Below, piece by piece: positions 7,800 through 50,588 of a stretch of 64,000 bases of DNA. The notes under the pieces are model-generated. The model was not told where the DNA came from and ran no database searches. It worked only from the letters and a program-made list of their open reading frames with translations. This DNA comes from Verrucomicrobiota bacterium (GTDB taxonomy: Bacteria; Verrucomicrobiota; Verrucomicrobiia; Opitutales; Seribacteraceae). Within the stretch, counting starts at the first letter, position 1. Each line of letters opens with the position of its first letter. Where the stretch lies: the NCBI GenBank assembly GCA_027622665.1, contig JAQBYT010000010.1, positions 56,768 to 120,767 of the forward strand, in the 5' to 3' direction. Position numbers and translations under genes: made by a program.

Positions 7800-9302
7800 C
7801 TAGGAACAAATCTCCTTAACCACATGCCCATGGACATCGGTCAGACGGAAATGGCGGCCTTGAAAACGGTAGGTCAGGCGTTCGTGGTCAATGCCTAGGA
7901 GGTGCATAACCGTAGCTTGGAAATCGTGGACATGCACCTTGTTCTCTACCGCATTGAAACCGAGGTCGTCCGATGCCCCGTAGGTCATTCCGGGCTTTGT
8001 CCCGCCTCCCGCCATCCATACGGTGAAGGCATAAGGGTGGTGGTCGCGTCCCCATCGTTTGCGGTTCTTGATATCACCCTGAATGAAAGGGGTGCGACCG
8101 AACTCGCCTCCCCAAATAACCAAGGTATCGTCGAGCATACCTCGCATCTTCAGGTCTTGCACGAGTGCGGCGCTGGCTTGGTCGGTGTCGCGGCATTGGT
8201 TGTAAAGCTCAGTAGTCAAGCTATTGTGTTGGTCCCAGCCGGCATGCATGCATTGGATGAAATTGACTCCCCGTTCAGCCAAGCGCCGGGCCATGAGGCA
8301 GTTGTAGGCAAAAGTACCAGGCTCCTTCACCTGCGGCCCATACATCTTCAACACATGTTCCGGCTCGTCCGAGAAATCGGTTAGTTCGGGAACCGAAGTC
8401 TGCATCTTGTAGGCCATCTCGTATTGGGCGATTCGGGTCTGAATCTCGGGATCACCCGCTTGATTGAATTTCAACTGGTTCAACTCGGCTAGATCGTCGA
8501 GTAAACCACGCCGCAGTTCGGGTTTCATGCCGTCCGGATTCTTTAGGTACAACACGGGATCGCGACTGCCGCGGAACCGAGCTCCCTGGAAACGAGTGGG
8601 AAGAAAGCCGGAACCCCAGTAGAAATCATAAAAAATCTGGCCACAGGAAGTGCCTTTGCTGATGGAAGTCATGACAACGAACCCAGGCAGTTGGTCGGAA
8701 GTGGAACCGAGTCCGTAATTGAGCCATGCTCCCATGGTGGGACGCCCGGGCATCTCTGATCCGCTGAGTAAAAAGGATATGGCCGGAGCATGATTGACCG
8801 CCTCGGTGTGCATGCTCTTAATGAAGCAAAGGTCATCCACTATCTTGGCGGTGTGGGGCATGAATTCGCTCACCCAAGCCCCTGATTGACCATGCCGGTG
8901 AAAAGGTTCCACTGGTTCCAGCATGAGCTTCCCGCTCGGGTTGCCGGTCATGGTGCTGAAACGTTTACCGCCAAGGTATTCCTCGGGGACCGGCTTACCA
9001 TGCAACTTGTGCAGACGAGGCTTGTAGTCAAAGAGATCGACGTGCGTGGGGGCACCGTTCTGGAACAGGTAAATGACGCGCTTGGCCTTGCCGGGAAGGT
9101 GAGATGCTCCGAGACTTCCTCCTTGCTGGGTTGGAGATGCACCCAGCAAACCGTCACGGCCAAGCAAACTGGCGAGGGCGGTCGTTCCAATGCCGGTGGC
9201 TCCTCGGCTGAAGAACTGGCGCCTATTGATGGCGAGTTGGCTGTCCTGCACAGGTTTCGGAGCAGCGGGGTCGAGAATTCTCCATGATTGGTTCATAGTC
9301 AT
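7800..9302 (-). CDS. DUF1501 protein (cassette A), Tat signal
   Basis: [51 protein letters not shown] and RLTDVHGHVV. ATGA overlap with the upstream gene. Confidence 0.92.
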   Translation of the reverse strand: MTMNQSWRILDPAAPKPVQDSQLAINRRQFFSRGATGIGTTALASLLGRDGLLGASPTQQGGSLGASHLPGKAKRVIYLFQNGAPTHVDLFDYKPRLHKLHGKPVPEEYLGGKRFSTMTGNPSGKLMLEPVEPFHRHGQSGAWVSEFMPHTAKIVDDLCFIKSMHTEAVNHAPAISFLLSGSEMPGRPTMGAWLNYGLGSTSDQLPGFVVMTSISKGTSCGQIFYDFYWGSGFLPTRFQGARFRGSRDPVLYLKNPDGMKPELRRGLLDDLAELNQLKFNQAGDPEIQTRIAQYEMAYKMQTSVPELTDFSDEPEHVLKMYGPQVKEPGTFAYNCLMARRLAERGVNFIQCMHAGWDQHNSLTTELYNQCRDTDQASAALVQDLKMRGMLDDTLVIWGGEFGRTPFIQGDIKNRKRWGRDHHPYAFTVWMAGGGTKPGMTYGASDDLGFNAVENKVHVHDFQATVMHLLGIDHERLTYRFQGRHFRLTDVHGHVVKEICS

Positions 9303-12300
9303 TCCTTGTTCAGGGTTTCATCCAAGTTAAGCAAATTCAAGCAAAGGGCAGCCCATGCAGCTCGAATGATCGGAGAAACCTCGGATTTCGGCTTGGAATC
9401 GCCGTGTGTGAGAAATCGACGGGCAGCTTCAGGGTCTTCCGTGAAGCTGGCGATGCCTCGCTCCAAGCTACGTTTCAATAGGGTCAGTTCCTCCGCAGAT
9501 GGGTTTCGACCAAGCACCCTCTTCGTGGCTAAACGCAGCCGCGTCTCGTCATCCATGGCGTCGCGAAGAAGGATATCGGCAAGGGCGCGGCCAGCCTCTA
9601 CATAAGTAACGTCGTTCATGATGGTGAGTGCATGCATGGGCGTGTTGGTCCGCAAGGGTTTCACCTCGCACACTTGGCGCTTGGCCACGTCGAAAAACAT
9701 GGCAGGCCCGATAATGCGGCGCCAGTAGGTGTACAAGCTCCGCCGGTAAAGAGCCAGGCCCTTGTCCTCGCGGTACTGTTTTTTCCCGAAAGTGGCGTCC
9801 GCCCAAAGGCCTGTAGGTTGGTAGCTATAGACGGCTTTCCCACCTATTTGCGGGTTCAGCAATCCCGAAACGGCAAGAGCCTGGTCGCGAATCATCCAGG
9901 AAGGCATACGAAAACGCGGGCCCCGGGCCAAAAGCCGATTCTCGGGATCCCGTTCGTATTCGGCAAAGGAAGATAGGATTGAACTGCGACGGTAGGTTTC
10001 ACTGGTGACGATGGTTCGAATCAAGCCCTTTACGTCCCAACCGGATTCCATGAATTCGGCGGCCAACCAATCGAGCAGTTCGGGATGACGAGGATATTCC
10101 GCCTGCACACCAAAATTTTCGGTCGTCTTGACCAAGCCCACCCCGAAAAGCATTTGCCAAAAGCGGTTCACGGTGACGCGGGCAGTGAGGGGATGCTTCG
10201 GATCCATCAACCATCGAGCCAAATCCAAGCGGTTAGGATTTTCCGTCTTGGGCAAAGGAGGCAACCAAGCCGGCACATTGGCGGAAACTGGTTTGCCGCG
10301 CTGGTTGTAGAGACCTCTGTCGAGCATGAAGGTCTGCCGGGGTTTCGCCATGTCGGCCATAACCATGACTTTGGGGAAGGAACTTTGGGTCTTCTTCACC
10401 TTTGCTTCGAGCTCGCGTTGCCTTTGCCGCAAGGCGAACAAGCTACCGTCCTGGGCCGCAAAGGCCTCCATCACAGTCTTTTGATCAGATGGGCTACGTT
10501 TATCGGAAGCTGTTTTTAGAGCAGAGATCAAGCCGTCTCGATCGCTCTTCAGGGAGGGTTCCGAACTGGAAGTCGAAGAGAATCGGAAATGACCAAGATT
10601 GTGATGTTTGTGCTCTGAATTGAATTTCAAGGTGACCTCCAATTCGGCTCCCTTGACCACCTCGATGCTTTTCTTGAGGCGAAAGGCGGCCGCATGATCG
10701 CGCTCAATGGGTTTGCCCGCCCAAACCGCCCACCCGGAGGTCGGGTTGTCGTCAAAGACATTCGTGACCTTGAGCAGTCCTTGTTCGAAGGTTACGGTGG
10801 CGCTGGCGACCTCAAATGGAACAAACTGGTCCACGGGGGTCTTTCGAACCTTGAATAGGATATCGGTAAGGACGAAGTTCCCGCTATCGGAACGAGCCAA
10901 GCCACCATGCGTCATTTTGGGATGACGAATGGCCTCTAGCCTGAAGCCGGTGATCTTTCCTGCGCCCAGGAGGTAAACGACTTGATATTCGTCCTTTTCG
11001 GGATTTTCACCCGAGGCGTAGATCAAACCGCTTTCCAGAATCTCGAGGGTTTGCTTCTTTGCCTTGGCTTCTTGTGGAAGGAGTCTCTGCCAGTCGTTCG
11101 CGGGCAGGTTTTTGAGAACCTTTGCTTCCCACTTAGCTTTAGCGCTGCCCTGTTCCTTTTGGCGGCTTTCGATATCCTTTTGCAAAGCGTCGATATCCTT
11201 TCGCAACTGGACCAATTCTTCGTTCTGGACGGTGGTGCCTGCCTGCAGAACGGGTTTTGTGAATGGATCCCCTCCCCCGCCATTGACCGGCGTCTGGTTG
11301 AAGAAGGCGTTGAGTTGGTAATATTCACTCTGCAGCAAGGGATCGAACTTGTGATCGTGGCAACGGGCGCAAGTCAAGGTGAGCCCCATCCACAAGGTAC
11401 CCATGGTTTCCGTCATGTCCCAAACGTACTCGACCCGATTTTCCTCCGCGATACGACCGCCTTCGCCATTGATCATGTGGTTGCGGTTGAACCCGGTCGC
11501 AAGAATTTGTTCCTGGGTGGCGCCAGGCAACAAATCGCCGGCAAGTTGCCAAATGGTAAACTGGTCATAGGGGAGATTCTCGTTGAATGCCTTTACCACC
11601 CAGTCCCTCCACGGCCACATGGTACGTTCGCGGTCACCTTGGTAGCCGTTGGTGTCGGCATAGCGGGCAGCCTCCAGCCAATCCCAAGCCATCCGTTCAC
11701 CATAGGCAGTGGCTTGCAAGGTGCGTTCCACGAGTCGCTCCCATGCATCGGGCTTTTCATCCCCCAGAAAAGATTCGATTTGCCCTGCGGTGGGCGGAAG
11801 ACCGGTGAGGTCGAGCTTGAGACGGCGAATGAGGGTCTCGCGGTTGGCCGAGGGATTGGCCTTGAACTCGTCCTGTTTCAAACGAGCGTCGACCAGGACG
11901 TCTATGGGATGCCTCTCCTTGTCCTTCACGGTTGGCCGGTCGACTGGTTCAAAGCTCCAGTGATCTTTCCATTTGGCTCCACCGGCAATCCACTCCTTGA
12001 GCAAATCGATTTTCTTCTTGGACAGGTTGCGGTTAGAGTCATGGGGTGGCATCCTTTCCTCGGGGTCATTGGAAGAAATGCGAGCGAACAGCTCACTTTT
12101 CGCCGGATTGCCCGGCACAACCGCTGCATAACCACCAAGATCAGCCAAAGCGCCTTCCTTTATGTCCAAACGCAACTTGGCCTTGCGTTTCTTGGCATCG
12201 GGCCCATGGCAATGAAAGCAATTGTCGGAAAGAATGGGGCGAATGTCCCGGTCGAAAGAAACTTCTTTCGCATCAACACAGCAGAAAGTGCCCGAAATGA

Positions 12301-12352
12301 TCACTGTCAGCAGAGAGACAGGATTAATTCCAAGGTATTTCTGCCTATTCAT
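9299..12352 (-). CDS. PSCyt1 + DUF1549 + DUF1553 (PSD1) protein (cassette A) with galactose-binding-like insert
   Basis: [64 protein letters not shown] and RTNTP. Central insert ITGFRLEA...GNFVLT. Confidence 0.92.
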   Translation of the reverse strand: MNRQKYLGINPVSLLTVIISGTFCCVDAKEVSFDRDIRPILSDNCFHCHGPDAKKRKAKLRLDIKEGALADLGGYAAVVPGNPAKSELFARISSNDPEERMPPHDSNRNLSKKKIDLLKEWIAGGAKWKDHWSFEPVDRPTVKDKERHPIDVLVDARLKQDEFKANPSANRETLIRRLKLDLTGLPPTAGQIESFLGDEKPDAWERLVERTLQATAYGERMAWDWLEAARYADTNGYQGDRERTMWPWRDWVVKAFNENLPYDQFTIWQLAGDLLPGATQEQILATGFNRNHMINGEGGRIAEENRVEYVWDMTETMGTLWMGLTLTCARCHDHKFDPLLQSEYYQLNAFFNQTPVNGGGGDPFTKPVLQAGTTVQNEELVQLRKDIDALQKDIESRQKEQGSAKAKWEAKVLKNLPANDWQRLLPQEAKAKKQTLEILESGLIYASGENPEKDEYQVVYLLGAGKITGFRLEAIRHPKMTHGGLARSDSGNFVLTDILFKVRKTPVDQFVPFEVASATVTFEQGLLKVTNVFDDNPTSGWAVWAGKPIERDHAAAFRLKKSIEVVKGAELEVTLKFNSEHKHHNLGHFRFSSTSSSEPSLKSDRDGLISALKTASDKRSPSDQKTVMEAFAAQDGSLFALRQRQRELEAKVKKTQSSFPKVMVMADMAKPRQTFMLDRGLYNQRGKPVSANVPAWLPPLPKTENPNRLDLARWLMDPKHPLTARVTVNRFWQMLFGVGLVKTTENFGVQAEYPRHPELLDWLAAEFMESGWDVKGLIRTIVTSETYRRSSILSSFAEYERDPENRLLARGPRFRMPSWMIRDQALAVSGLLNPQIGGKAVYSYQPTGLWADATFGKKQYREDKGLALYRRSLYTYWRRIIGPAMFFDVAKRQVCEVKPLRTNTPMHALTIMNDVTYVEAGRALADILLRDAMDDETRLRLATKRVLGRNPSAEELTLLKRSLERGIASFTEDPEAARRFLTHGDSKPKSEVSPIIRAAWAALCLNLLNLDETLNKE

Positions 12353-12440: not shown

Positions 12441-13877
12441 TCACCCGATAATATCTTTAACCACGCGTGATTTCTCCACGCCTGTCAGTTTCTGGTCAAG
12501 ACCTTGAAAGGGGAAGCTCAGCGTGCGGTGGTCAACTCCGAGGAGGTGGAGCATAGTCGCGTGGAGATCGCGCACGTTCACGGGGTTTTCGACTACGTTG
12601 TAACTGAAGTCATCGGTCTTGCCATAATGTATGCCGCCCTTAATGCCACCTCCGGCGAGCCATCCCGAAAAGCAGCGAGGATGGTGGTCGCGACCATAGT
12701 TTTCACGAGTGATATTGCCTTGACCATACACCGTGCGGCCAAATTCCCCCACAAAAACAACCAACGTGTCGTCGAGAAGCCCACGCAACTTCAGATCCTT
12801 GAGCAAGGCGGCGGTGGGCTGATCGACGTCCCTGCATTGCCCTCTCATGTTATTGGGCAAGCTGGAATGATGATCCCAACCACGATGAAACAGTTGCACG
12901 AAACGAACGTCCCTCTCGGCCATTCGTCGAGCGAGAAGGCAATTTCTGGCATAAGACCCAAGTTTGTTCACCTCCGGGCCGTACATGTCCAGAACCTCCT
13001 TCGGTTCCTTGGAAATATCGGTCAACTCGGGCACCGACGACTGCATGCGAAAAGCCATCTCCTGCTGTGCGATGGTTGTCTGTATCTCGGGATCTCCGAT
13101 CTCCGCCAAATGCTTCCGATTCAAGGTGGCAAGCGAGTCGAGCATGCTCCGGCGCACCTGGCCATCGATACCCTTGGGATTGGAGAGGAACAAGACCGGG
13201 TCGCCCACGGTTTGAAAAGAAGTACCTTGATACTTGGAAGGCAGGAAACCACTCCCCCACAGCCGGGCATATAGGGCCTGAACATTCACCCGCCCGCTCC
13301 AGAAAGCCGAAGGCAAAACCACGAAATCCGGCAAGTCCTTGTTCAAGGATCCCAAGCCATAGCTCAGCCAAGAGCCCATGCTTGGCTTGCCGGGTGTTTC
13401 CGACCCGGTGCAAAAGGAGGTCTTGCCGGGGTCGTGATTAATGGCGTTGGTGTTGAAGGAATGAACAAGGCAGAGGTCGTCCGCAGACGCAGAGAGGTGG
13501 GGAAGCAGTTCGCTCATCCAAACTCCGCTCTTTCCTTTTTGGGCGAACTTAAAGGTCGATGGAGCAACAAATTGTTGCTTGCCTCGAGTCATCGCGGTCA
13601 CGCGCTGCCCTTTGCTTATGGATTTGGGCAACTCGGTTTTGAAGAGCTTGTGGAGATCGGGTTTGTAATCGAACAAGTCTACTTGGCTCGGGGCCCCGGC
13701 CATGAACAGGAAGATGATACGTTTCGCCTTGGGCTTGGTAACTGAACCTGCATTGGCGGCGAACCCCTGCTTGGAGAGCAAGGAAGCCAAGGCGGCTGTC
13801 CCCAAGCCCATTCCAGCATTCAGTAAAAAGGAGCGGCGCGATTGGAGGAGGTCGAAGTCTGTCAAAGGGTCCTTCAT
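12441..13877 (-). CDS. DUF1501 protein (cassette B), Tat signal
   Basis: [39 protein letters not shown] and GRDHHP. Start placed at ATG 13877, 1 nt after the partner's stop (ORF track 13919). Confidence 0.92.
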
Positions 13878-13878
13878 G

Positions 13879-16317
13879 TTATTCACGGGTCTTGGTGATA
13901 TCAAGGTTGTAGAGAGCATTGACCAGAACGGTCCAAGCGGCGAGCTGAGCCTTCTTCTCCGCGTCTCCCACGTTCAATCCCTGGCAAATCGCATCCGCCA
14001 ACGCCGGTTGCTCGAGATAGTTCTTTTGCAGGTTTCGCACAAGGTCGTCCAGAACTTGCCGTTCCTTCTCGTCCGGCAACTTGGATGTCACGGTCTCGTA
14101 TGTGAAAGCCAGTCGCCTTGGTCCATTCGTCGCCTCTGCCTCCAAGGCCTTTCGAGCTAGCTCTCGAGCCGCCTTGAGGTATTCGCTTTCGTTGAGGAGC
14201 AACAAAGCTTGAGCCGGTGTGTTGGTACGTTCGCGACGGGCGATGCAGGCGTCACGAGTGGGGGCATTGAGGATAGTCATCTGGGGCGGAGGCATACCGC
14301 GTTTCCAGTAAGTGTACAGACTGCGGCGATAGATGGCGTCCCCTCCATCGGCCTTGAATCTCTCTCCTGTCATTGTGACCGATTTCCAAAGGCCATCCGG
14401 TTGAGGTGGCTTGACGCTCTTGCCAAACATCGTGTTCACGAGCAAACCACTGGTCGAGAGTATCTGGTCGCGAATCATTTCGGCGTCCATCCTGTAGCGG
14501 GAACCTCGGGCCAAATTTCGATTTTCAGGATCCTTCGCGAATTGTTCCGGTTTAGAAACGGAGGATTGGCGATAGGTCCTCGACAGCACGATCTGCTTGA
14601 TCAACGTCTTCACGTCCCATCCTGATTCAATGAACGACACCGTGAGATGATCGAGCAATTCGGGGTGACTGGGGACTTCGCCTTGGGCCCCGATATCCTC
14701 GGAAGTCTTCACCAAGCCCGTCCCGAAGAACTGCTGCCAAAAACGATTCACTACAACCCGTGCAGTAAGCGGATTACTGGGATCGACGAACCAATCGGCA
14801 AGATCCATGCGGGTCGCGGTCTCGCCCGCTTTCTTCAAGGCGGGTAAAAATTCGGGCGTGTTGCGCGTGACTAATTCTCCGGGAGCGTCGTATTGGCCCC
14901 TTATCCTGATATGGGTGGGGCGCACCTCCATTCGTTCTTTCATGACCATCACCCGAGGAATTTCACGATCGAGCCGATCACGATTTCCCTTCAAGGCATT
15001 GTACTTGCCGGTCAAGGATCCGAGTTCTTGCGAAAGGACTTTCTTTTTATTGGCCTCTTTCTCTCCAGCTATTTTCTTCTCAAGCTCTTTTACCTCATTG
15101 TCGCTCTCTGCGAGCTGCTTGCTGAACTGCTCCAAGTTCTTGTGCTGCTCAGGTGTTCCCAAGGGCAAAAAGGGAGGCTGAAGGCCATTCTTGGGCCGAC
15201 CGCCGGTTTCAGGGGCAGCGTCGATGTTATTGAAGAAAGCGAACAAGGAGTAGAAATCTTTCTGGGTGAGTGGATCATATTTATGGTCGTGGCAGGTAGC
15301 GCAATGCACGGTCATCCCCATGAAAGTGGTACCAACGGCCGTGACCCGGTCGACCACGTTCTTGAAGAAGCTCTCCTCGGGCAATGCTGTGCCACGGTCA
15401 ATGATGAGGTGCAGTCGATTGAAAGCCGAGGCTACCAGTTGATCGCTTGTCGCATTGGAGAACAAGTCACCAGCCAACTGATAGCGAACGAAGTCGTCAT
15501 AGCCCAAATTGTCGTTAAATGCCCGGATCACCCAATCGCGATAGGCAATGAAATTACGGTAAAAGTCCTTGTGCATGCCATTGGTATCGGCAAAGCGGAC
15601 TAGGTCCAACCAGTATCGGGCGACATGCTCCCCATATTGCTTTTTGCCCAACAAACGATCGACGAGAGCTTCGTAAGCCTCAGAACGATCATCCGACAAA
15701 AACGCCTTTATCTCATCTCGGGTGGGTGGCAACCCGGTCAAGTCGAGGCTGACCCTTCGTATCAAGGTTCGTTTGTCCGCTTCTGTGGAAGGATGAAGGT
15801 TCAGGGCTTCGAGCTTAGCCAAAACAAGCCGATCGATCGGAAGGTTGCTCCAGTTGTTGTCTTTGAGTTTGGGAGCATCCGGTTTCTTGGCGGGAACAAA
15901 TGCCCAGAACCGCTCATAAGGGGCACCCGTTTCGATCCATCTCTTGACGATTGCTTGCTCCTCTTTGGAGAGCGGTTTCTTGTGTGCCTTAGGAGGAGGC
16001 ATCACCTCATCGGCGTCATCGGTGGTGATTCGATACCAAAGTTCGCTGTCCTTGATCGAGCCGGGATTGATCGCCGTCGTACCTTCGTGGGTGCGATAGG
16101 CACCGTCCTCGCCATCCGCCCGGTCCAACCGAAGCTTCGACTTGCGTTCATGAGCATCCGGCCCATGACACGCGAAACATCGGTCGGAGAGAATAGGAAA
16201 GACATCCCGATTGAAAGACACCTCCTTGGCTTCGGCAGTAATGGCATGGCTAAGTAGACACACCAACGAACAAGAAATCATTACGAGTCGAAATCTAGCT
16301 GACATCGGATAAATCAT
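13879..16317 (-). CDS. PSCyt1 + DUF1549 + DUF1553 protein (cassette B), minimal form with no central insert
   Basis: [15 protein letters not shown] and [11 protein letters not shown], then only a short coiled coil before the DUF1553 motifs ([15 protein letters not shown]). Confidence 0.92.
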
Positions 16318-16447: not shown

Positions 16448-17860
16448 TTAGGCGATCAGTTGCTCGACTGCGTGGTGCTCCTCGACCCCGGTGAGGCGGA
16501 AGTCCAAGCCTTGGAAACGGAAGGACAATCGAGAATGATCAATTCCGAGAAGTTGTAGGATGGTGGCTTGCAGGTCGTGGACATGCACCGGGTCCTCGCT
16601 GACGTGGAACCCGAGTTCATCGGTCTGACCGAGGGTGATGCCGGGTTTGACCCCTCCGCCGGCCATCCACATGGTAAAGGCTTGTGGGTGATGGTCTCGT
16701 CCGCCGCTGCGCTTAAGTGCAGCGCTGGCCTCAACCATCGGGGTACGGCCGAATTCTCCTCCCCAGACGACAAGGGTATCTTCGAGCATGCCCCGTTGCT
16801 TGAGGTCCTGCACGAGGGCGGCGCTGGCCTGGTCTATCGCCTTGGCGTTGTTCTTGACGTTTCCCTCGACGTTGGAGTGCGCATCCCAACCCCCGTGGTA
16901 AAGCTGGATAAAACGAGTTCCGCGTTCGGCCAACCGGCGAGCCAGCAGGCAGTTGCTGGCGAAGTCGGACTTGCCTTCCTTGACTCCGTATAGTTCGAGG
17001 GTCTCCTTGCTTTCCTTGGAGAAGTCCATCAATTCGGGGGCCCGTGCCTGCATCCGGTAGGCCATCTCGTAGGCATCGATGCGGGCGGTGATTTCTGGGT
17101 CACGCAACCTTTGATGAGTCCCGCGATTGAGCTTGTTCAGCAGGTCGAGGGTCTGGCGCTGGGCGGTTCGGTCGATCCCCTTCGGGTTGGAGACGTGAAG
17201 GATTGGGTCAGAGCCTTCTCGAAAGGGAACTCCCTGATGCTCGGAGGGCAGGAAGCCGGATCCCCACATTGCGGATCCTCCGCTTAGGTTTCCTCCGCTT
17301 CTCATGACAACGAAGCCGGGAAGGTCATCCGACTCGCTCCCTATTCCGTAGCTAAGCCAGGAACCCATGCTTGCCCGCCCGGGGATTCCACTGCCCGTAG
17401 TCATGAACAGTTGGGCCGGGGCATGATTAAAGTGGTCGGTATGCATCGATTTGACGAAGGTCAAGTCATCCGCGACCTTGCTCAGGTAGGGCAACCGGTC
17501 CGAGAGTTCGGCCCCGGAATCTCCGTGCTTGGCAAAGGGAAAGCGTGGACCGAGAACGGCGGCGTCCGGCTGGATGAAGGCGTAGCGTTGACCCTTGATC
17601 ACGGAGGGAGGAATGGGTTTGCCCTCCATTTCCTTGAGCTTGGGTTTGTTGTCGAAGAGCTCGAGTTGGCTGGGAGCGCCGGCCATAAAGAGATAGATCA
17701 CCCGCTTGGCCTTGATCGGGAAGCGCATGAAGTCGGGCTTGCCGGTTGCTCCGAAGGATTCCTTGGCGAGCAGTGAGGCGAGGGCGATCTTGCCGACGCC
17801 AATTCCGCAATCCTGAAAAAAGTGACGGCGCGTGCGATGGAGGAGAGGAGGAACGTTCAT
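16448..17860 (-). CDS. DUF1501 protein (cassette C), Tat signal
   Basis: [45 protein letters not shown] and GRDHHP. ATGA overlap with its partner. Confidence 0.92.
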   Translation of the reverse strand: MNVPPLLHRTRRHFFQDCGIGVGKIALASLLAKESFGATGKPDFMRFPIKAKRVIYLFMAGAPSQLELFDNKPKLKEMEGKPIPPSVIKGQRYAFIQPDAAVLGPRFPFAKHGDSGAELSDRLPYLSKVADDLTFVKSMHTDHFNHAPAQLFMTTGSGIPGRASMGSWLSYGIGSESDDLPGFVVMRSGGNLSGGSAMWGSGFLPSEHQGVPFREGSDPILHVSNPKGIDRTAQRQTLDLLNKLNRGTHQRLRDPEITARIDAYEMAYRMQARAPELMDFSKESKETLELYGVKEGKSDFASNCLLARRLAERGTRFIQLYHGGWDAHSNVEGNVKNNAKAIDQASAALVQDLKQRGMLEDTLVVWGGEFGRTPMVEASAALKRSGGRDHHPQAFTMWMAGGGVKPGITLGQTDELGFHVSEDPVHVHDLQATILQLLGIDHSRLSFRFQGLDFRLTGVEEHHAVEQLIA

Positions 17861-25270: not shown

Positions 25271-25375
25271 ATTCAATTCAGACACCCAAAACCTCTAGAG
25301 GAATGGATACAAGAAGGAAACGCTTCTGCCGTTAACAACTACGGACAGGACACTAGGCCTTGTCGGGAAACTGGT

Positions 25376-28540: not shown

Positions 28541-28622
28541 ATCTAAGATGGAAAGGAGAAAGGAAGGAAGCAACATAAGGATTTGCGGAGAGCGAATCAA
28601 TCCGTAAGCGGAAAGAAGGTTT

Positions 28623-29085
28623 TCAGGCAAGAACGGCTTTCACGACGTGGTCACGCACGTCGGCAAGCCGAAAGTGTCGTCCCTGGTGCTTGACTTCGCC
28701 GAGGCTTGCCACGAGAAGCTCGCCCTTCGACACCGGCATCTCATGAATTGCATCGGAAACGCTCTCGATTCGATCGGTAAATGGAAGAACCCGATCGCCA
28801 ACTTGAATTGTAGTGCAGATTCCAGATCGTCCACTTACGCGTTTCTTCTCCTCGTGGCACCCCTTGTTGATATCACTGTCAAACGGAAGGCGAAGATCCT
28901 TGTAGGCAGGAACAGGCGAAGGCAGCTTAAGAGGTCCATTAAAGAAAGAGCCCTGCAGGAAGTTGCTCATCTGTCGCGGCAGTCCTGTGTCAATCATAAC
29001 GGCACATTGGCCAATCAGTCGAGGCATAGCCAGAAGTTAAAAGTAAAATCCCAATTACGCGAAGCAAGTGTCACAAATTTATTAT
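28623..29085 (-). pseudogene. Chimeric relic: two fragments of a paralogue of the PQQ/malectin gene fused to the last ~22 codons of a DUF1501 gene
   Basis: Reads STDWPMCRYD*HRTAATDEQLPAGLFL*WT, frameshift, LKLPSPVPAYKDLRLPFD|SDINKGCHEE...VGDRVLPFTDRIESVSDAIHEM...SLGEV|KHQGRHFRLADVRDHVVKAVLA*. The pieces align by eye to 22394-25270 and to the DUF1501 C-termini in this window. Confidence 0.85.
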
Positions 29086-30539: not shown

Positions 30540-30545
30540 TAATGA

Positions 30546-32744: not shown

Positions 32745-32767
32745 TTTTTAGTACCCTTCATAATATA

Positions 32768-34822: not shown

Positions 34823-34834
34823 CGGTATCGATGG

Positions 34835-41713: not shown

Positions 41714-43186
41714 TTACGACAGAATGGGTTTCACGACGTGTCCGTGTACGTCGGTGAGTCGGTAGTCTCTGCCTTGGAACTTATAGGTGAGCTTCTTGTG
41801 GTCAACTCCGAGCAGGTGCATAATGGTGGCATTCAAGTCGTGAACATGCACGGGATCTTGCGTGATATTATAGCAGTAATCATCCGTTTCTCCCAGCGAG
41901 AATCCTTTCTTGATCCCAGCTCCAGCCAGGAAGACGGTAAAGCATCGAGGGTGGTGGTCCCGCCCGTAATTAGTCGCCGTGAGCTTGCCTTGCGAATAAA
42001 CTGTTCTTCCGAACTCTCCGCCCCAGACGATCAAGGTGTCCTCCAGCAAGCCACGCTGACGCAGGTCGGCGATCAAGGCAGCAGTCGGTTGGTCCGTGTC
42101 GCGGCACTGCCCCTTCACCGCATTCGGCAGTCCCCCGTGATGGTCCCAGCCCATGTGGAAAAGCTGGATGCAGCGGACGTCGCGCTCCGCCATGCGCCGG
42201 GCAAGCAAGCAGTTCGCCGCATACGTTCCGGGTTTGAGCACGTCCGGGCCATAGCTCTCCAAGATATGCTTGGGTTCCTTGGAAACGTCGGTCAGCTCGG
42301 GCACGCTTGACTGCATGCGGAAAGCCAACTCGTACTGGGAAATTCGGGCATCGATCTCGGGGTCGCCAACCAGTTGATGATTCTTGCGATTGAGAAGGGC
42401 AATCTCGTCCAGCATCCCGCGCTTCATCTTGCGATCGATTCCCTTTGGATCGGAAAGATAAAGGACGGGGTCACCCGAGTTCCTGAACTTTACCCCCTGA
42501 TGCTGTGTGGAAAGGAAGCCCGCTCCCCAAAGGCGATCGTACAAAGGCTGGTCGTCGGGACGACCCGTTCCAAAAGATGTCAGCACGACGTAAGCGGGCA
42601 GGTCCTTGTTCTCGGTGCCCAAGCCGTAACTTAACCAGGACCCAATGCTCGGACGACCGGCCAATTGGTGCCCGGTCTGGCAAAAAGTGATCGCCGGGTC
42701 ATGATTGATCGCCTCGGTGTGCATCGACTTGATGAAGCACAATTCATCCGCCTCTTTCGACAAGTGGGGGAGCACGTCGCTCATCCAATGACCCGAATTC
42801 CCCTGCCGTGCGAACTTGAAGATGCTGGGCGCTATGGGAAAGCTCTTTTGCCCCGAGGTCATGGTGGTCAGGCGTTGGCCTTTCCGAATGCTGTCGGGCA
42901 AATCCTTCCCCCGCTGTTTTTCCATGAGAGGCTTTGGATCGAACAAGTCCATTTGGGAAGGCGCTCCAGACTGGAACAGATAAATGACACGCTTGGCCTT
43001 GGCCGGGAAATTCGGGAATCCGTTGCCGGTCGTCTTTGCTTCACTGGACAGCGAGGGAAGCAAGCCGGCAAGGGCGGTGGCGCTCAATGCGGCGGCCCCG
43101 TTGCGGAGAAAGATCCGCCTATTCAGGAAGTCTTGAGTGGCTCCCAGGTTCGGTTTGTTCGTGAGAATGTTTTGGAATTCATTCAT
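41714..43186 (-). CDS. DUF1501 protein (cassette E), Tat signal
   Basis: NRRIFL, FQSGAPSQMDLFDPKP, HTEAINHDPA, GWDHH, GGEFGRT and GRDHHP. Confidence 0.92.
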   Translation of the reverse strand: MNEFQNILTNKPNLGATQDFLNRRIFLRNGAAALSATALAGLLPSLSSEAKTTGNGFPNFPAKAKRVIYLFQSGAPSQMDLFDPKPLMEKQRGKDLPDSIRKGQRLTTMTSGQKSFPIAPSIFKFARQGNSGHWMSDVLPHLSKEADELCFIKSMHTEAINHDPAITFCQTGHQLAGRPSIGSWLSYGLGTENKDLPAYVVLTSFGTGRPDDQPLYDRLWGAGFLSTQHQGVKFRNSGDPVLYLSDPKGIDRKMKRGMLDEIALLNRKNHQLVGDPEIDARISQYELAFRMQSSVPELTDVSKEPKHILESYGPDVLKPGTYAANCLLARRMAERDVRCIQLFHMGWDHHGGLPNAVKGQCRDTDQPTAALIADLRQRGLLEDTLIVWGGEFGRTVYSQGKLTATNYGRDHHPRCFTVFLAGAGIKKGFSLGETDDYCYNITQDPVHVHDLNATIMHLLGVDHKKLTYKFQGRDYRLTDVHGHVVKPILS

Positions 43187-43199
43187 GACAGTCTAGGCT

Positions 43200-46100
43200 T
43201 CAGTCCTTGGTTACCACACGGTCGAGATTGAGCAGGATGCTTGCGGTGGCCGAGTAAGCTGCCAGTTCACGCGCATCGAGCGAAGGATCGGGCTTCGAGG
43301 TGCCTTGCATGATGAGAGATTTCGCTGCTTCCGGTTTCTCGTTGAATTCTTTCCTTCTGCGCTCAAACCCGGATTTTAGTACAGCCAAAGTTTCCTTGTC
43401 CGGCGTCCGTGCGGTGACGAGGCGAAAGCCGGTGGTCAGGCGCGACTCCACGGTGTCGCCGCCTTCATTCATCATCCTTTGGGCCAAGGCCCGAGCGGCC
43501 TCGACGTAAGTGACTTCGTTCATCAAGGCCAATGCCTGCAGCGGCGTGTTTGTGCGGGACCGCTTGGGTGTGCAGATCTCTCGGTTGGGTGCGTCGAACA
43601 AAAGCATGGAAGGCGGAGCTGCCGTGCGCTTCCAGATGGTGTACATGCTTCTCCGGTAAAGTCCATCGCCTGTGGTGGCCTTGTAATTGCGCAAGTTGCC
43701 GTATCGATTCGTCTCGTCCCATACTCCGGTCGGCATGTAGGGGCGGGTGCTTGGCCCCCCGATTTTCGGCACGAGCAAGCCGCTGATGGCCAAGGCTTGG
43801 TCGCGCACCGTCTCCCCTTTCAAACGAAAGCGCGGACCGCGGGCCAGCAGACGGTTTTCCGGATCCTTGCGATAGAGTTCCTCGGGAGCGCTCGAGCTTT
43901 GGCGGTAAGCCTTGCTCAGCATGATGAACTTAATCATCGCCTTCATATCCCATGCTTGGGCAGGCTTTTCGGCAACCTTGGGCAATCGGGACGGTTTCGC
44001 AAATTCAACCGCCAGCCAGTCGAGAAGCTCGGGATGGACGGGCCACTCCGCCTGCGAACCGAAATTTTCCGAAGTTTTCACAATTCCAACCCCGAACAGG
44101 CGTTCCCAAATGCGGTTTACCCATACGCGGGCGGTCAAGGGATGATCACCTGAGACCAGCCAACGAGCCAACCCAAGTCGATTGAGAGGTTGGTCCGCAG
44201 CCAATGGAGGAAGGATGGCGGGCAGTTTCCTTTCCACCTTGTCAGTGGGTTGGTCGTACTCTCCTCGATTCAGGACAAAGGCATCCTTGGGAGCAGGCTT
44301 TTCCTTCATCACCATGGTACTGGGAAGCGTGTTCTTGAAATTGTCCAAAGCCTTCTTGGCTTGGGCAACCTTGGTCTGCGCTTGGGAAATTGGATTTCGG
44401 GCATTTGCCTTGAAGTATTGTTCCAGTTTCTTCCTGTTCCCCGGTTTCAAGGATCCAGGCTCCATTCGCAGCAAGGAAACGAGATTGGCCGGCAAGCCGG
44501 GTTTGCCACCGAGCGACGTTACCTTTCTCTCCGAGTAGGAAACGCGGAAGCGTCCCATGTTGTGCTGGGATAGGGCTTCATGAAAGAAACGGACCACTAG
44601 GAGACCTCCCTTTGGAAGCTTGACCTGGGAATCAGGCAGGAACATGGCCTTGATCGGTTTGCGGCGGGTCGGTCCATCCACCGCCCAGCCGGTGCCGGGG
44701 TTCCCGTTGTTGACCATGCTGATGTCCCACCCCTGCTGGGAATAGTCAGCTTCGCGACGGGTCAGCTTGACCGGCATGGGCTTGCCTTCAGTGGGTCGAA
44801 TTTCCGCTTCCACGCGTGTGAGCACGAAGTTTCCATTGCTGTACCGGCCCAAGCTCTTTTGTGGAATCCGGTCGTCGGGTAGGCAGTCGAGCAGAATCCC
44901 GGAAAACATGCCGGCCGCCAATGGAGACTCTATTTCATAAACATCATGGGTCGGGTTCTTGCCGCCGGGAAGCCACGATCCGTCCGGTTGCCTCTTGAAA
45001 GTCGCCCCGCCCTTGCTCGTCACCTTTTCATCCACCAAAGGGATCCATGCTTGCCGGGGCTTTCCGTTCGCAAAGGCCTGTCTCTCCTCGTTCATCCATT
45101 TTTCAAAGGCGGCGGCCAAGCCTGCTTTCTCGCTCGCTTGCGCTTTGGCCTGCGCTTCCTCCAGTTTCGCCTTCAGTTCCACTTCCTTTTTTTTGTGGTC
45201 TGCTCCTGCCACCTTGATGAAAGGCATCGTATTGTTGCCGTTCTTGCCATTGGCCGCCAGCACGCCGCTTTCGTCATTCGAGTTGAAGAAGGCGAAGAAT
45301 TGATAGAATTCCTTTTGTGAGATCGGGTCGTACTTATGGTCGTGGCAGCGGGCGCAGTTCATGGTCAGGGCCATCCATGTCATGCTCGTGGTCTCCACCC
45401 GGTCGATCACCGTTTCCACGAACCACTCGTCCACGATTCTGCCACCTTCCCCGTTGAGGCGATGGTTTCGATTGAACCCGGTCGCCACGATTTGGTCATC
45501 GGTCGGGTTCGGCAACATGTCGCCCGCCAATTGCTCGATAGTGAACTGATCAAAGGGAAGGTTCCGGTTGTAGGCGCCGATCAACCATTCCCTCCAGAGC
45601 CACATACTGCGGCTTCCGTCGCTCTGAAAACCATTGCTATCGGCATAACGGGCTAGATCGAGCCATTCCAACGCCATTCGCTCGCCGTAGTGCGGGGAAG
45701 ACAGCAACCGATCGAGAACCTTTTCATAGGCATCGGGAGTATTGTCTTCTGCAAAGGCATCCATTTCCTCCAGCGTGGGGGGTAATCCCGTCAGGTCCAA
45801 GCTGACTCTCCTGAGCAAGGTCTCCTTGTCCGCTTCCACCCTCATGCTCAAACCCTCGACCAGCAGGCGTTTCTTGAGGAAGGCATCGAGCGGATGCTTG
45901 GCATCGGGATACTGAGGCACGGCTGGTCGCTTCGTAGACGCAAAGGCCCAATGGCCTTGGTACTCGGCGCCTTGTTCGATCCATTTGCGCAAGATTTCCT
46001 TTTGCTCCTTCGTGATCGACTTACCACTATCGATGGGGGGCATGTGGTCGTCATCGTCGTCGGGCAGAAAGATCCTGAAGACAAGTTCACTCTTCTCCGC

Positions 46101-46358
46101 ATCCCCCTTGATCATCACCGGATCCCCCGACTTGGCCGGTTTGAATGCATCCGACTCCAAGTCCAGCCTCAGTCCGCTCTTCCTTTTCTTTTCATCCGGT
46201 CCGTGGCAATGAAAGCAGGCATTCGAGAGAATGGGGCGAACGTCGCGGTTGAACTCGAGTTTCTCCTCCGCCCGTGACGCGGTGATCGAGAAAGCCAAGA
46301 AAATGGTTATTACAAGTACTAGTTTGTCCATGAAATCTGAAATTGAATCGATCTTCAT
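43200..46358 (-). CDS. PSCyt1 + DUF1549 + DUF1553 protein (cassette E) with galactose-binding-like insert
   Basis: [26 protein letters not shown], insert FSGILLDCLPDD...GNFVLT and RTNTPLQAL. Start could be 46358 or 46331. Confidence 0.92.
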   Translation of the reverse strand: MKIDSISDFMDKLVLVITIFLAFSITASRAEEKLEFNRDVRPILSNACFHCHGPDEKKRKSGLRLDLESDAFKPAKSGDPVMIKGDAEKSELVFRIFLPDDDDDHMPPIDSGKSITKEQKEILRKWIEQGAEYQGHWAFASTKRPAVPQYPDAKHPLDAFLKKRLLVEGLSMRVEADKETLLRRVSLDLTGLPPTLEEMDAFAEDNTPDAYEKVLDRLLSSPHYGERMALEWLDLARYADSNGFQSDGSRSMWLWREWLIGAYNRNLPFDQFTIEQLAGDMLPNPTDDQIVATGFNRNHRLNGEGGRIVDEWFVETVIDRVETTSMTWMALTMNCARCHDHKYDPISQKEFYQFFAFFNSNDESGVLAANGKNGNNTMPFIKVAGADHKKKEVELKAKLEEAQAKAQASEKAGLAAAFEKWMNEERQAFANGKPRQAWIPLVDEKVTSKGGATFKRQPDGSWLPGGKNPTHDVYEIESPLAAGMFSGILLDCLPDDRIPQKSLGRYSNGNFVLTRVEAEIRPTEGKPMPVKLTRREADYSQQGWDISMVNNGNPGTGWAVDGPTRRKPIKAMFLPDSQVKLPKGGLLVVRFFHEALSQHNMGRFRVSYSERKVTSLGGKPGLPANLVSLLRMEPGSLKPGNRKKLEQYFKANARNPISQAQTKVAQAKKALDNFKNTLPSTMVMKEKPAPKDAFVLNRGEYDQPTDKVERKLPAILPPLAADQPLNRLGLARWLVSGDHPLTARVWVNRIWERLFGVGIVKTSENFGSQAEWPVHPELLDWLAVEFAKPSRLPKVAEKPAQAWDMKAMIKFIMLSKAYRQSSSAPEELYRKDPENRLLARGPRFRLKGETVRDQALAISGLLVPKIGGPSTRPYMPTGVWDETNRYGNLRNYKATTGDGLYRRSMYTIWKRTAAPPSMLLFDAPNREICTPKRSRTNTPLQALALMNEVTYVEAARALAQRMMNEGGDTVESRLTTGFRLVTARTPDKETLAVLKSGFERRRKEFNEKPEAAKSLIMQGTSKPDPSLDARELAAYSATASILLNLDRVVTKD

Positions 46359-46396
46359 CGGCAACGGAAATGAATCAGGGGATGCTCTTGCCAATC

Positions 46397-47845
46397 TTAG
46401 GCAAGGATGGGAGCGATCACCTTGCCCGCGACGTCGGTGAGGCGAAAGTCGCGGCCGCCATAGCGATAGGTGAGTTCCTTGTGGTTCAAGCCGAGCAAAT
46501 GGAGAATGGTGGCATGAAAGTCGTTCACGTGCACTTTGTCCACTGCTGCCTTGTGACCCACCTCGTCCGATTCCCCATGGGAAACACCGCCCTTTACGCC
46601 GCCGCCCGCCATCCAGGCAGTGAAGCAGTGCGGGTTATGGTCGCGCCCGGGCTTGCCGCTTTTTTGCGCCACGGGCAGACGGCCGAATTCACCCGCCCAT
46701 ACGATAAGTGTTTCGTCCAACAGGCCGCGTTGTTCCAAATCGGTCAGCAAACCGGCGATGGGTTGGTCCGTTTCCTGGGCGAATCCGGAATGGTTTCCCT
46801 TGATGTCGCTATGACCGTCCCAACTGCGCTGGTTCGCCATGCCGCCGGAGTAGATCTGAATGAAACGGGTACCGCGCTCGACCAATCGTCGGGCCATCAT
46901 GCACTGGGCAGCGAAGTGCTTCGATTTTCCTACGTTCAGGCCGTAGAGCTCTTTCAAGTGTTCGGGTTCATTGGCGAGGTCGAGGGCCTCGGGGGCCGCG
47001 GTTTGCATGCGGTAGGCCAACTCGAAGCTCTCGATGCGGGCCGCCAGTTCCTCCTCGTGCGGATTCTTCTTGAGATCCTGGCGATTGAGCTGGGCCAACA
47101 AGTCGAGCTGGCGACGTTGGCGGGAGGTGTCCTGCTCCTTCGGGCGGTGCAAGTTGTCGATGGGGTCTCCCTTCGGGCGAAAGTGGGTACCTTGGTAGAC
47201 GCTGGGCAAAAAGCCGGCTCCCCAGTTGGCAGCATGGCCCTTGGGCAGACCGCGCCCGAGAGGATCGCTCATGACCACGAAAGAGGGTAGGTCGCGACTC
47301 GATGAACCCAAGCCGTAGGTCGCCCATGCCCCGGCGCACGGGTAGCCCATGCGGGGTACGCCGCAATTCATCATGAAGAGGGCGGGACTGTGATTATTCG
47401 ACTCGGTATGCCCTGAATGGATAAAGGCCATCTTGTCGACATGTTCTCCAAGGCGAGGAAAGATCTCAGAGACCATTTTACCGCATTGACCGCGTGGAGT
47501 AAACTTGAAGGGGCTTTTCATCAATCCACCCACCGCGTTGGCGAAGAATCCGGTAAAGCGATCGAAACCCTCGAAGGTCATGCCGTCCATTTTCTCAAGG
47601 GCGGGCTTGTAGTCCCAGGTGTCAACGTGGCTAGGACCTCCGTTTACGAAGATCCAGATGACCGACTTGGCTCGGCCAGGGAAATGAGATTGCTTAGGAG
47701 CCAAGGGATTGGGAGCCCCAAGCAAACCTTCATCTTGTAGGAGACCAGTAAGGCCAAGAGCTCCGAGGCCCATTCCGCAACGGTCGAGCATTGCTCTCCG
47801 ATTCATGGGATGGGAAATTGAGTTTTTATGAAAGAAATCGCTCAT
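46397..47845 (-). CDS. DUF1501 protein (cassette F), Tat signal
   Basis: NRRAML, FVNGGPSHVDTWDYKP, HTESNNHSPA, WDGH, GEFGRLP and GRDHNP. Confidence 0.92.
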   Translation of the reverse strand: MSDFFHKNSISHPMNRRAMLDRCGMGLGALGLTGLLQDEGLLGAPNPLAPKQSHFPGRAKSVIWIFVNGGPSHVDTWDYKPALEKMDGMTFEGFDRFTGFFANAVGGLMKSPFKFTPRGQCGKMVSEIFPRLGEHVDKMAFIHSGHTESNNHSPALFMMNCGVPRMGYPCAGAWATYGLGSSSRDLPSFVVMSDPLGRGLPKGHAANWGAGFLPSVYQGTHFRPKGDPIDNLHRPKEQDTSRQRRQLDLLAQLNRQDLKKNPHEEELAARIESFELAYRMQTAAPEALDLANEPEHLKELYGLNVGKSKHFAAQCMMARRLVERGTRFIQIYSGGMANQRSWDGHSDIKGNHSGFAQETDQPIAGLLTDLEQRGLLDETLIVWAGEFGRLPVAQKSGKPGRDHNPHCFTAWMAGGGVKGGVSHGESDEVGHKAAVDKVHVNDFHATILHLLGLNHKELTYRYGGRDFRLTDVAGKVIAPILA

Positions 47846-47849
47846 GTTA

Positions 47850-50588
47850 TCATCGAAGGTAGCTGAACTCGTTTAAACCGAACAAGGTTTGAGCAAAATC
47901 AATCAAGGCGAGCCTGTGTGGGTTCGCTTGCTTGGCTTCACGATAGGAAATTTCCTGATTTTCAAGGAAAGCAATGCTGGCAACACTTTCACCGGCATCA
48001 GGTTCCCTCCCCAAGGTGGCCAAATAACCGGCATCGACGGCCTTCTCTAAGCTTTCGCCAACCTCCTTGAACAATCTTTCGGCTAAAGTGGTGGCATACC
48101 CTCTAACATTCGGACTATTCATAAACATGAGAGCCTGCGGCGCAATAGTGGTACTGATCCGTCGACCTTGGCTGACGAGGGGTTCGGGGGCGTCGAAGAG
48201 CTGCATTGTCGGGATCAACCGACTTCGCTTTATGAAGAAGTAGACGCTTCGTCTTTTGCTTCTCTCGTCGAGGGTTCCTTTTCCGTACATGGTTTTGTCT
48301 AGTTGACCGCTCACCGTGAGTAAACTGTCGCGAATCACTTCGCCTTCCAGCCTTCTTGGACTGAAGCGCCAGAGAAATTGATTGTCGATATCCTTAGCTG
48401 CCTTGGCTTCATCGTGGGCCGAACTTTGGCGCCAAGCAGCGCTGGAGAGTATCAGTTTATGCATCGGCTTGAGTCGCCAACCATTCTCGATCAAGCGGTA
48501 TGCTAGCCAATCGAGCAGCTCAGGGTGCGTGGGCGGTTCCGATTGGTAGCCGAAATCGTTCGGCGTGGCCACCAGTCCTTGGCCAAAGTGATGCTGCCAG
48601 AGACGGTTCATAATGACGCGAGCCGCCAAGTGCCCGGCTCCGTCCTTCACGTCGGTCAACCAATCGGCCAAGGCCTTTCGCTGGTGCGATGTGCGGGCGC
48701 CCTCTGGGCGCTTGGCCTGCCAATGACTGGATTTCTTGCCGTTGCGCATGAGAAGGGGAAGGAAGGACTGGCTGACCTCTTCGCCTTTCTTGTCGGGATC
48801 ACCTCGATCAAGGAAGTATATCTTCTTGTAGAAATGCGGATAGCCTCGCCCGTCGGCATGATGCTTCATCGGCTTAAAACCCTCGCTGGAGACCATCATC
48901 TTGACCTTCTTGGGACTCGGCTTCTTGCTCTCGTGGGCAGTGATCTTGGCATTCAATTCCTTCCATTTGGAATCGATGCCTCGGTAAGCGTCACGAAGGG
49001 AGGTTCGTTGCCTTTCATCAAGCCCTTCCACGCCGCCCGGTTGACTCACTGCCTTGAATAGGGCCACCATCACTTGGCTTTGGCTTTCCGCCTTGAGGGG
49101 TGGGGCCAGTTGCGAGGAGACCGAGAAGCGGGGTCGCCCTATGACGTGGCTGGTATTCACGAAGAAATCCATTTCGAATGTAAATTCGGAGCCCCCCTCG
49201 TTGTTCACAGGCTCGGCGAACTCGAACACGCAGACGTGATCCTTGCCGATTTGCCCGTCCACCGCCCAACCCGTCTTACGCTTGTCGCCATCGATAGACG
49301 AAGCAATGGAAAGAGTCGTTGTGTTTTGTTGGTGATCAGCCCGTGGGTTGACCAGCTTGACGGGCTTTCCTTTCCCTTTCTCACCCACTTTCTTCGCGAA
49401 CACGCGGATGTCGCTGAGGGCGATGTTGCCGTTTCCGGCTCGACCGGGACCGTTGCTCTTCATCGAACTGTGGGTCAACGCCTCGAGGCGAAGGGCCGTG
49501 ACCTTGGGCAGCGCCACCTTGGCCGTGACTACCCAGCGGTCGTCCGAGGGGTTCTTTCCGGAAAGCAGGAAGGATCCGTCCTCTTGGGCGGTGAAGGTTG
49601 CCCCGTCGAGGGATTTGGGCTCGGCGTCGTCCAAAGTAGCCCAAACCGAGGCATTAGTGGTTTTGCCTTCGGGGTCATTCAACCAGTTGTCGAAGCGCTT
49701 GGGCAATTCCTCCCGTTCAAACTTCTCCCGTACGGCGACAAGCGGTTCCCTTTCCTTTTCCCATTTCGCCAATCCGTCGCGGTATTGCTGTGTGTCCATG
49801 GGAGCATCGATCTCGCTCCGTATGGTGAGTCCGAAGGAGGAGGTCAGTCGATAATAGTCCTTGGTCGCGATGGGATCGAACTTATGGTCGTGGCAGCGGG
49901 CACATCCCACCGTCAGAGCGAGGAAGGCCATGCCCGTGGTGTTCGCCATGTCGTCTAGTTCGTCGTAACGGGCCGACTCAAATTCCTTTTCCGTGAGCTG
50001 GGTGGGGAATACCCCGGCTCCAAGGAAACCCGTGGCGCTCAGGGCCAGCGGGTCGTCGGGGGAGATCTCGTCACCCGCCATCTGCCAGCGCACGAATTGG
50101 TCATAGGGCATATCCTGATTGAAAGCTTTGATGACGAAATCTCGGAAATGATAGGCGTGGGGACGATCGTAATCCTGCTCAAAGCCATGGCTTTCCGCGA
50201 AGCGGGCAACGTCCAGCCAGTGCCGGGCCCAGCGCTCGCCGAAATGTTCGGAGGCGAGAAGTTCGTCGATCACGGTCTCAAATGGCTTACCTTTGCCGTC
50301 CACCAGCCCGGGCAGTCCGACGAGGTCGAAATGGAGACGTCGGTTCAATGCGTTGGCCTCGGCTTCCTTATTGGGAGCCAAGCCCTTCTCCTCAAGCTTG
50401 GACAAAATGAAGCGGTCGACGTCGTTGCGAACCCATTTCGCATCCTTCACTTGCGGAGGCTTGGGATCAGTCAATTCACGCCATGCCCAATGCTTGCCAC
50501 GCTGCTGGTCCCAATCGATGGGCTCATCGTTCGCCCATGACGTTCCGTGAAGAGCAAAGGCGATGGCAAGAAGCAAAAAATGTTTCAT
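47850..50588 (-). CDS. DUF1549 + DUF1553 protein (cassette F) lacking the N-terminal PSCyt1 heme domain; galactose-binding-like insert
   Basis: Signal peptide [19 protein letters not shown] followed almost directly by [22 protein letters not shown]; insert VTALRLEAL...[15 protein letters not shown]. Alternative start at 50597. Confidence 0.9.

Follow-up and report, generated by a model that had tools for sequence, protein, structure and literature searches.

The closest described counterparts of the locus reported here are paired genes of Planctomycetes-Verrucomicrobia-Chlamydiae (PVC) bacteria that encode a DUF1501 protein and a partner with PSCyt1, PSCyt2 and PSD1 domains. The passages of Kamneva 2012 (PMC3542564) on which we draw describe this module, its inserts, its many copies and a clustering of its trees by locus type, and offer the guess that it comprises a cofactor enzyme, exported by twin-arginine translocation (Tat), and a cytochrome, acting with sugars. 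A literature search that left subscription papers largely outside found no functional or structural study of the module.

We found that a 64,000-nucleotide stretch of DNA from a Verrucomicrobiota bacterium (contig JAQBYT010000010.1; the whole stretch is called the window below) contains an array of six such cassettes. Measured against the relevant passages of Kamneva 2012 and He 2017 (PMC5615132), the array has the same domains, gene order and signals, the same optional LamG and F5/8 inserts and many copies per genome, and it does not differ in kind from the published module. Adjacency (6/6), the twin-arginine, signal and CxxCH motifs, and many paralogues with inserts were all found. An earlier note on the window had proposed a Tat-exported cofactor enzyme and a cytochrome that act on sugars, and the core of that idea is already in the passages of Kamneva 2012. 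What is new relative to the passages of the two papers is the strict fidelity of the partners, a predicted fold, a His at the position of a nucleophile, and the six-cassette cluster.

Paired genes in the array and across the genome

All six cassettes are on the minus strand, and in 6/6 the gene for the PSCyt2 and PSD1 domains (PF07583 and PF07587) is upstream of the DUF1501 gene (PF07394). The two genes are tightly coupled, with junctions in cassettes 1 to 6 of -4 (an ATGA overlap at 9299-9302), +1, -4 (17857-17860), -23, +13 and +4 nucleotides. We refer to the DUF1501 genes as D1 to D6 and to the partners as P1 to P6; residues are numbered in the open reading frames (ORFs) 12441-13919 for D2 and 13879-16317 for P2.

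7800..9302, minus strand: D1, DUF1501 with a Tat-type signal
9299..12352, minus strand: P1, PSCyt1-PSCyt2-[unnamed discoidin-like insert]-PSD1, two CxxCH
12441..13877, minus strand: D2, DUF1501, modelled with an alkaline-phosphatase fold; invariant H162, D349, H351, E392, R395, R410 and H412
13879..16305, minus strand: P2, PSCyt1-PSCyt2-bare coiled-coil stalk-PSD1, CxxCHxH at 339-345; the minimal cassette type
16448..17860, minus strand: D3, DUF1501
17857..20799, minus strand: P3, PSCyt1-PSCyt2-[unnamed discoidin-like insert]-PSD1
37118..38581, minus strand: D4, DUF1501
38559..41645, minus strand: P4, PSCyt1-PSCyt2-[Laminin_G_3]-PSD1
41714..43186, minus strand: D5, DUF1501
43200..46331, minus strand: P5, PSCyt1-PSCyt2-[unnamed discoidin-like insert]-PSD1
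46397..47845, minus strand: D6, DUF1501 of a second subclade
47850..50588, minus strand: P6, PSCyt2-[unnamed discoidin-like insert]-PSD1, no PSCyt1, one CxxCH

The earlier note had described this order, strand and coupling, and had called the paralogues diverged rather than recent duplicates; all of this held. Identity is 39-60% among the six DUF1501 proteins and, over aligned stretches, 29-48% among the partners. Its motifs were also recovered by motif and hydropathy checks. Each DUF1501 has a twin Arg followed by a hydrophobic stretch, and NH, WDxH, GEFGR and GRDH are present in 6/6; VHVxD is present in 5/6, and D2 has VNVRD instead. All six partners have a hydrophobic N-terminus and CxxCHxHKxDP, and five have a second, N-terminal CxxCH (PSCyt1), which P6 lacks. 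Between the two blocks of three cassettes is a five-gene cluster that holds one more gene of each kind, a seventh DUF1501 (35721-37070) and a seventh PSCyt2/PSD1 (30546-32744).

The genome contains 46 PSCyt2/PSD1 partner ORFs and 69 DUF1501 ORFs above our score cut-offs, and the array is therefore the local share of a genome-wide expansion. Of the 46 partner ORFs, 41 are directly followed by a DUF1501 ORF, and the array accounts for six of these. Partner ORFs and DUF1501 ORFs together occupy 4.9% of the genome's bases, or 7.7% if DUF1552 pairs are included (37 DUF1552 ORFs, 30 partners). A search with P2 returned 31,860 clusters at E 1e-10. In Planctomycetota and Verrucomicrobiota, few protein families that lack an explanation are as large as this module.

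We compared cassette 2 to 80 loci with D2 orthologues (L056-L135; DUF1501 79-96% identical) from Verrucomicrobiota, Planctomycetota and others. A partner was upstream in 74 of the 80, and in 74/74 its best match among the 46 partners was P2. Five of the remaining six loci are cut by a contig end, and one has no partner. These loci contain 14 other cassettes, of which 10 had the expected partner, including 4/4 of those in which DUF1501 identity was at least 70%. Order was similar in two planctomycete genomes: the partner was followed by DUF1501 in 62 of 70 cases in one (G021; all of its strong PSD1 matches) and in 30 of 37 in the other (G022; 39 of 42 matches were taken, and 37 passed the coverage filters).

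The trees gave the same picture. Across 124 non-redundant pairs, 60 of 121 splits were common to the partner and DUF1501 trees; none conflicted at support 0.99, and a single one did at 0.95. As a control, the two halves of the partner itself shared 52 of 121. By this sequence comparison, the pair trees appear as congruent as those of two halves of one protein, which was the check that the earlier note had suggested, and its dedicated pairing stands at the gene level (adjacency, fidelity and trees). The sequences show that partner and DUF1501 are inherited in lock-step and that partners never swap.

The closest D2 matches in named genomes are Opitutia records, so that the host is probably a marine member of the Verrucomicrobiota. 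The P2/D2 cassette is also in Rubritalea profundi, Oceaniferula spumae and Neorhodopirellula pilleata (loci L087, L116 and L133). Its high DUF1501 identity across phyla suggests either transfer of the cassette or very strong constraint. Single records named Crocinitomicaceae and Vicinamibacteria are also among the orthologues. No third fixed gene was found in the neighborhoods of the 80 loci (the best cluster occurs in 11).

Predicted structure of the two subunits

DUF1501 is predicted to have the core alpha/beta fold of the alkaline phosphatase superfamily, a likeness that the earlier note had mentioned. The model of D2 (predicted local distance difference test, pLDDT, 90) matched this superfamily in Foldseek (E 1e-7). 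It aligned to PafA with Z 19.7 (root mean square deviation, rmsd, 4.4; 280 aligned residues), to the nucleotide pyrophosphatase/phosphodiesterases (NPPs) with Z about 19, and to sulfatases with Z about 17.5. Over PafA, NPP/ENPP, sulfatases and LtaS, the core fold is alike (Z 17-20, about 240-280 aligned residues). E392 (by alignment) and the His and Asp residues of WDxH and GRDH (apparently) fall at metal-site positions. Sequence searches reached less far. Nothing was found in the PDB for D4 alone or P2 alone, a PDB profile search gave only weak sulfatase and LtaS matches (best E 0.006) and a signal-peptide artefact, NCBIfam had no model for DUF1501 or the partner, and an Atlas search with DUF1501 returned only DUF1501 clusters.

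The putative active site is unlike that of the superfamily. A profile alignment to 71 sulfatases of the genome aligned H162 with the catalytic Cys, kept the next Pro in register, and matched E392-F393 to the Asp-Asn of SDNG; in the D2 model, H162 begins the helix expected at the nucleophile site. H162, D349, E392, R395 and H412 were present in 368/368 DUF1501 proteins, and H351 and R410 in 367/368, counted (as for the partners below) in redundant sets. The [CS]xPxR motif of formylglycine (S1) sulfatases was absent, with His at that place in 368/368, and H162 also stands where a Ser or Thr nucleophile would be. At the end of the first strand, whose position is taken from the model, there is no conserved acidic residue (positions 73/74 are M/V/Q and A/N/S). 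With H162 at the nucleophile site and no first-strand acid, DUF1501 does not fit among the standard sulfatases and phosphatases. Identity to the superfamily is 12-17%, and a fixed cytochrome partner is a further difference. By analogy with alkaline phosphatase, D349, H351 and H412 would preserve one of the two metal sites, and the other would have been rebuilt.

It is possible, if rather unlikely, that DUF1501 is nevertheless a hydrolase with a His nucleophile, or a sulfo-, phospho- or acyltransferase, with one metal at D349/H351/H412; the partner would then target and activate it, and the haem would be structural or regulatory. The top fold matches are all hydrolases or transferases, H162 is at the nucleophile position, and the pair of invariant Arg might coordinate an oxyanion. 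The genome also encodes 82 sulfatase-like ORFs, and another type of partner, DUF1800, mostly lacks CxxCH. Hydrolysis would, however, leave the invariant haem motif of the partners unexplained, and the missing CxPxR, Ser/Thr nucleophile and first-strand acid also speak against it.

The partner is predicted to be a PSCyt2/PSD1 helical core with a coiled-coil stalk and a variable domain at its tip. In the P2 model (pLDDT 91), a helical core is accompanied by a small cytochrome domain and by a stalk of two helices. PSCyt1 aligned to the cytochrome FoxE (Z 9.3, rmsd 3.0, 97 aligned residues). Fold searches of the PDB with the whole partner model matched only generic coiled coils and FoxE and left the core unmatched; the core alone was not searched, so that it could have a known fold. 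Couplings between PSCyt2 and PSD1 within the chain (Y228-I573, V189-V577 and I264-L667) indicate that they are two halves of one core.

C339, C342, H343 and H345 were found in 293/293 partners, including proteins without PSCyt1. The core has no conserved Met (H551 is in 235/248 and Y668 in 245/248), and the second haem ligand could therefore come from the DUF1501 subunit. The core CxxCHxH, which lies in a region without a fold match, could also bind another metal. W138, W236, W527 and Y668 are conserved in the core.

The stretch between PSCyt2 and PSD1 varies from 41 to 533 residues, and different domains have been exchanged into it. We found LamG, F5/8 type C, NPCBM, GH2 sugar-binding, 3-keto-disaccharide hydrolase-like, Golvesin_C and other inserts, often of a sugar-binding type. 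The inserts of P1, P3, P5 and P6 belong to one unnamed family, also present in 48 of 150 representatives. It matched only unnamed Atlas clusters; the closest family with a name is F5/8 type C (0.81), a lead only. Elsewhere in the genome, a 1975-residue partner (G000:C43:26147-32074) combines PSCyt1, WD40 and PSCyt2/PSD1 in a single chain with a split member of the unnamed insert family.

These features bear on the notion that the partner is a dedicated maturase, which would modify the active site of DUF1501 oxidatively once and leave it to act alone. MauG is a model for such a maturase, and sulfatases need modification at the same position; two CxxCH in 5/6 partners and the conserved Trp and Tyr of the core would fit. 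We regard this as improbable: there is one translationally coupled partner per enzyme, the sugar-binding-type inserts are on the partner, and P6 has a single haem motif.

A proposed periplasmic oxidoreductase

The reading that we rank first, though we hold it at something short of an even chance, is that each cassette encodes a dedicated periplasmic two-subunit haem/metal oxidoreductase that acts on sugar-derived, probably anionic, substrates. Catalysis would fall to DUF1501, as the metal-binding subunit, and the PSCyt2/PSD1 protein would act as the haem c partner and present the substrate, likely a sugar or glycan fragment. In the predicted fold, D349, H351 and H412 would hold one metal; with H162 in the place of the nucleophile and the first acidic ligand missing, H162 and E392 would be further ligands. 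R395 and R410 would hold an anionic substrate. The subunits, one exported by Tat and the other by the general secretory (Sec) pathway, would meet only in the periplasm, and the core haem (CxxCHxH) would receive electrons from the metal site and hand them on to the class-I haem of PSCyt1, where present. The export and haem machinery that the earlier note's model calls for is encoded in the genome (TatC and two CcsA-type genes). SorAB-type and Sox-type periplasmic enzymes also combine a Tat-exported cofactor subunit with a Sec-exported cytochrome c; their folds and cofactors are unrelated, and the analogy is one of how they work.

Several results weigh against this reading. We know of no redox enzyme of the alkaline-phosphatase fold. 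The match of H162 to the sulfatase Cys is weak alone (E 0.44) and rests on spacing and on the helix position in the model. Congruent trees are also expected from co-inheritance without binding. Covariation between the chains (164 and 124 non-redundant pairs) reached a top z of 8.8, compared to 8.5-9.7 in shuffles, and contacts within chains reached z 11-15 in the same runs; no co-evolving interface is visible at this depth, at which (124-164 pairs) the test has little power, and no signal would be expected from an invariant interface. P2 lacks an insert altogether, and for several of the inserts Pfam offers no match. Sulfatases are not enriched within 10 kb of partner genes (14/46, compared to 10.6 at random, P 0.15), and the earlier note's link to sulfated products was overstated; this genome is unlike the tendency of sulfatases to lie near the module that a passage of He 2017 (PMC5615132) reports. 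Among 61 full-length DUF1501 proteins, 21 have no partner directly upstream, and the DUF1800 type of partner has no CxxCH in 3 of 4 sequences; haem is therefore not general for the family. In the 61-sequence tree, the class-I clade (30 DUF1501 proteins, including all six of the array) has 28 directly paired members and two with a partner just downstream or 4.7 kb upstream, and the other 19 unpaired proteins lie in a separate clade.

Two covariation signals were rejected as phylogenetic noise when they were lost after removal of redundancy: a hint from 113 pairs (partner 289-313 with DUF1501 102-114 and 213) and hub-like matches from 248 pairs.

The pair might also be no substrate-converting enzyme but an envelope scaffold for electron transfer, metal handling or sensing, close to the view in the passages of Kamneva 2012 (PMC3542564). 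There is no transmembrane or catalytic annotation, complex clusters (such as that between the blocks) add WD40, Big_2 and PPC interaction domains, and orthologues remain 80-96% identical across phyla. The pocket-like set of invariant His, Asp, Glu and Arg fits enzymes better, however, as do dozens of maintained paralogues whose different inserts would suit different substrates, and we think a scaffold improbable. We thus place the oxidoreductase first, the His-nucleophile hydrolase or transferase second, the scaffold third and the maturase last.

History of the array and the wider family

We also asked about the array itself. In trees of 38 full pairs (three of the 41 paired cassettes were dropped as broken or cut), its six members are scattered among cassettes of other contigs and are not mutual closest relatives; therefore there was no recent tandem duplication. 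A genome of the same genus (G003) keeps the order P6D6-P5D5-P4D4, two shared genes, P3D3 and then P2, with an extra cassette before P2 and with D2-P1D1 on another contig. The partners of this kept order are 80-87% identical for five cassettes and 69% for P4. In genomes of the same family, single cassettes occur alone and in different surroundings. Orthologues in related genomes are 84-94% (DUF1501) and 64-87% (partners) identical, and those of P3 and P4 differ in length by 120-220 residues. The cassette is the unit of inheritance.

Clustering of cassettes exceeds chance. At least seven PSD1 genes within 45 kb occurred in 1 of 5000 random placements (P 0.0002), a test that ignores gene size and island structure; three within 15 kb is ordinary by the same test (P 0.31). 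We think it probable that the cassettes are together only because catabolic islands collect them, and that they share neither a function nor regulation as a group. The six do not form a monophyletic group, cassettes have been gained or lost between genomes of the same genus and are solitary in others, and a second DUF1501 turns up in 14 of the 39 long loci that surround D2 orthologues, with variable neighbors. Promoter and terminator scans were at chance level. The clustering itself, the order P6-P5-P4-two genes-P3 and P2-P1 kept in G003, and a gap of only a few bases from cassette 6 to cassette 5 argue for some closer tie. The array is likely a cluster of old, separately specialized cassettes and not one multi-cassette machine. 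To call it a specificity library, as the earlier note had, was an overstatement: it holds 6 of 41 paired cassettes, which are not closest relatives and lie apart in other genomes.

Between the blocks lie the following genes.

21043..22386, plus strand: twin-arginine Gfo/Idh/MocA oxidoreductase, not at this place in G003
22394-25285, minus strand: pyrroloquinoline quinone (PQQ)-type propeller/malectin protein, same place in G003 (79% identity)
25376-28630, minus strand: PVC-type haem-binding CxxCH protein, same place in G003
29187..37070, minus strand: inserted "complex" DUF1501 cluster of five genes, absent from this place in G003
29187-30539, minus strand: PSCyt1-WD40, in the complex cluster
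30546-32744, minus strand: Big_2-PSCyt2-PSD1, in the complex cluster
32768-34822, minus strand: PPC protein, in the complex cluster
34835-35761, minus strand: PD40 propeller, in the complex cluster
35721-37070, minus strand: DUF1501, in the complex cluster

The five genes at 29187..37070 are the four-gene complex cluster in the passages of Kamneva 2012 (PMC3542564) plus the PD40 gene. At its left edge, 28623-29027 (minus strand) is a scar: 28638-28692 and 28877-28928 are 75% copies, respectively, of the C-terminus of D4 (37133-37187) and of the beginning of the PQQ-propeller gene (25066-25117). A repeat search of the window found the cassette paralogues themselves and no mobile-element ends, and a tRNA search found none. 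Two sulfatase genes in the window are broken, one by an in-frame stop that splits the reading frame (57618-59033, plus strand) and one with only its C-terminal half left (4363-5088, minus strand), where G004 has a 518-residue ORF. The genes at 1279-3813 (plus strand) and 25376-28630 (minus strand) each encode a large exported protein with a single haem, of the PVC haem-binding CxxCH type or a similar one; one of the two genes adjoins a DHDPS-family gene. At 59271-62141 (plus strand), a PSCyt1/PSCyt3/PSD2-5 protein is followed by an esterase gene instead of the usual DUF1552 partner.

DUF1552 (HXXSHH) is homologous to DUF1501 (probability 97-98%, E 1e-10), and its invariant H142 falls on H162. 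Unlike DUF1501, it has His-x3-His for Asp-x-His and lacks the Glu of GEFGR. The PSCyt3/PSD4 and DUF1800 partners have only short helical segments in common with the PSCyt2/PSD1 core (probability 37-73%), a weak homology that runs in another order. A bolder notion, which we consider doubtful, is that DUF1501/PSCyt2-PSD1, DUF1552/PSCyt3-PSD4 and DUF1501/DUF1800 form a single superfamily of two-subunit enzymes of the periplasm, whose alkaline-phosphatase fold was converted from a hydrolytic to a redox function, with a composite haem-metal center and exchangeable stalk-tip domains that direct each pair to a glycan of its own. The center would combine the His-rich metal site of the Tat subunit with the CxxCHxH haem of the partner, and H345 or a DUF1501 His would bridge the subunits.

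The array itself is not new biology. With the residue anatomy and the strict pairing, a long-standing question becomes easier to test; named residues, a minimal insert-free cassette (P2/D2) and six natural pairs serve as handles. If the notion of a single superfamily is true, these modules (about 8% of this marine genome) would be a major unrecognized oxidative arm of polysaccharide breakdown.

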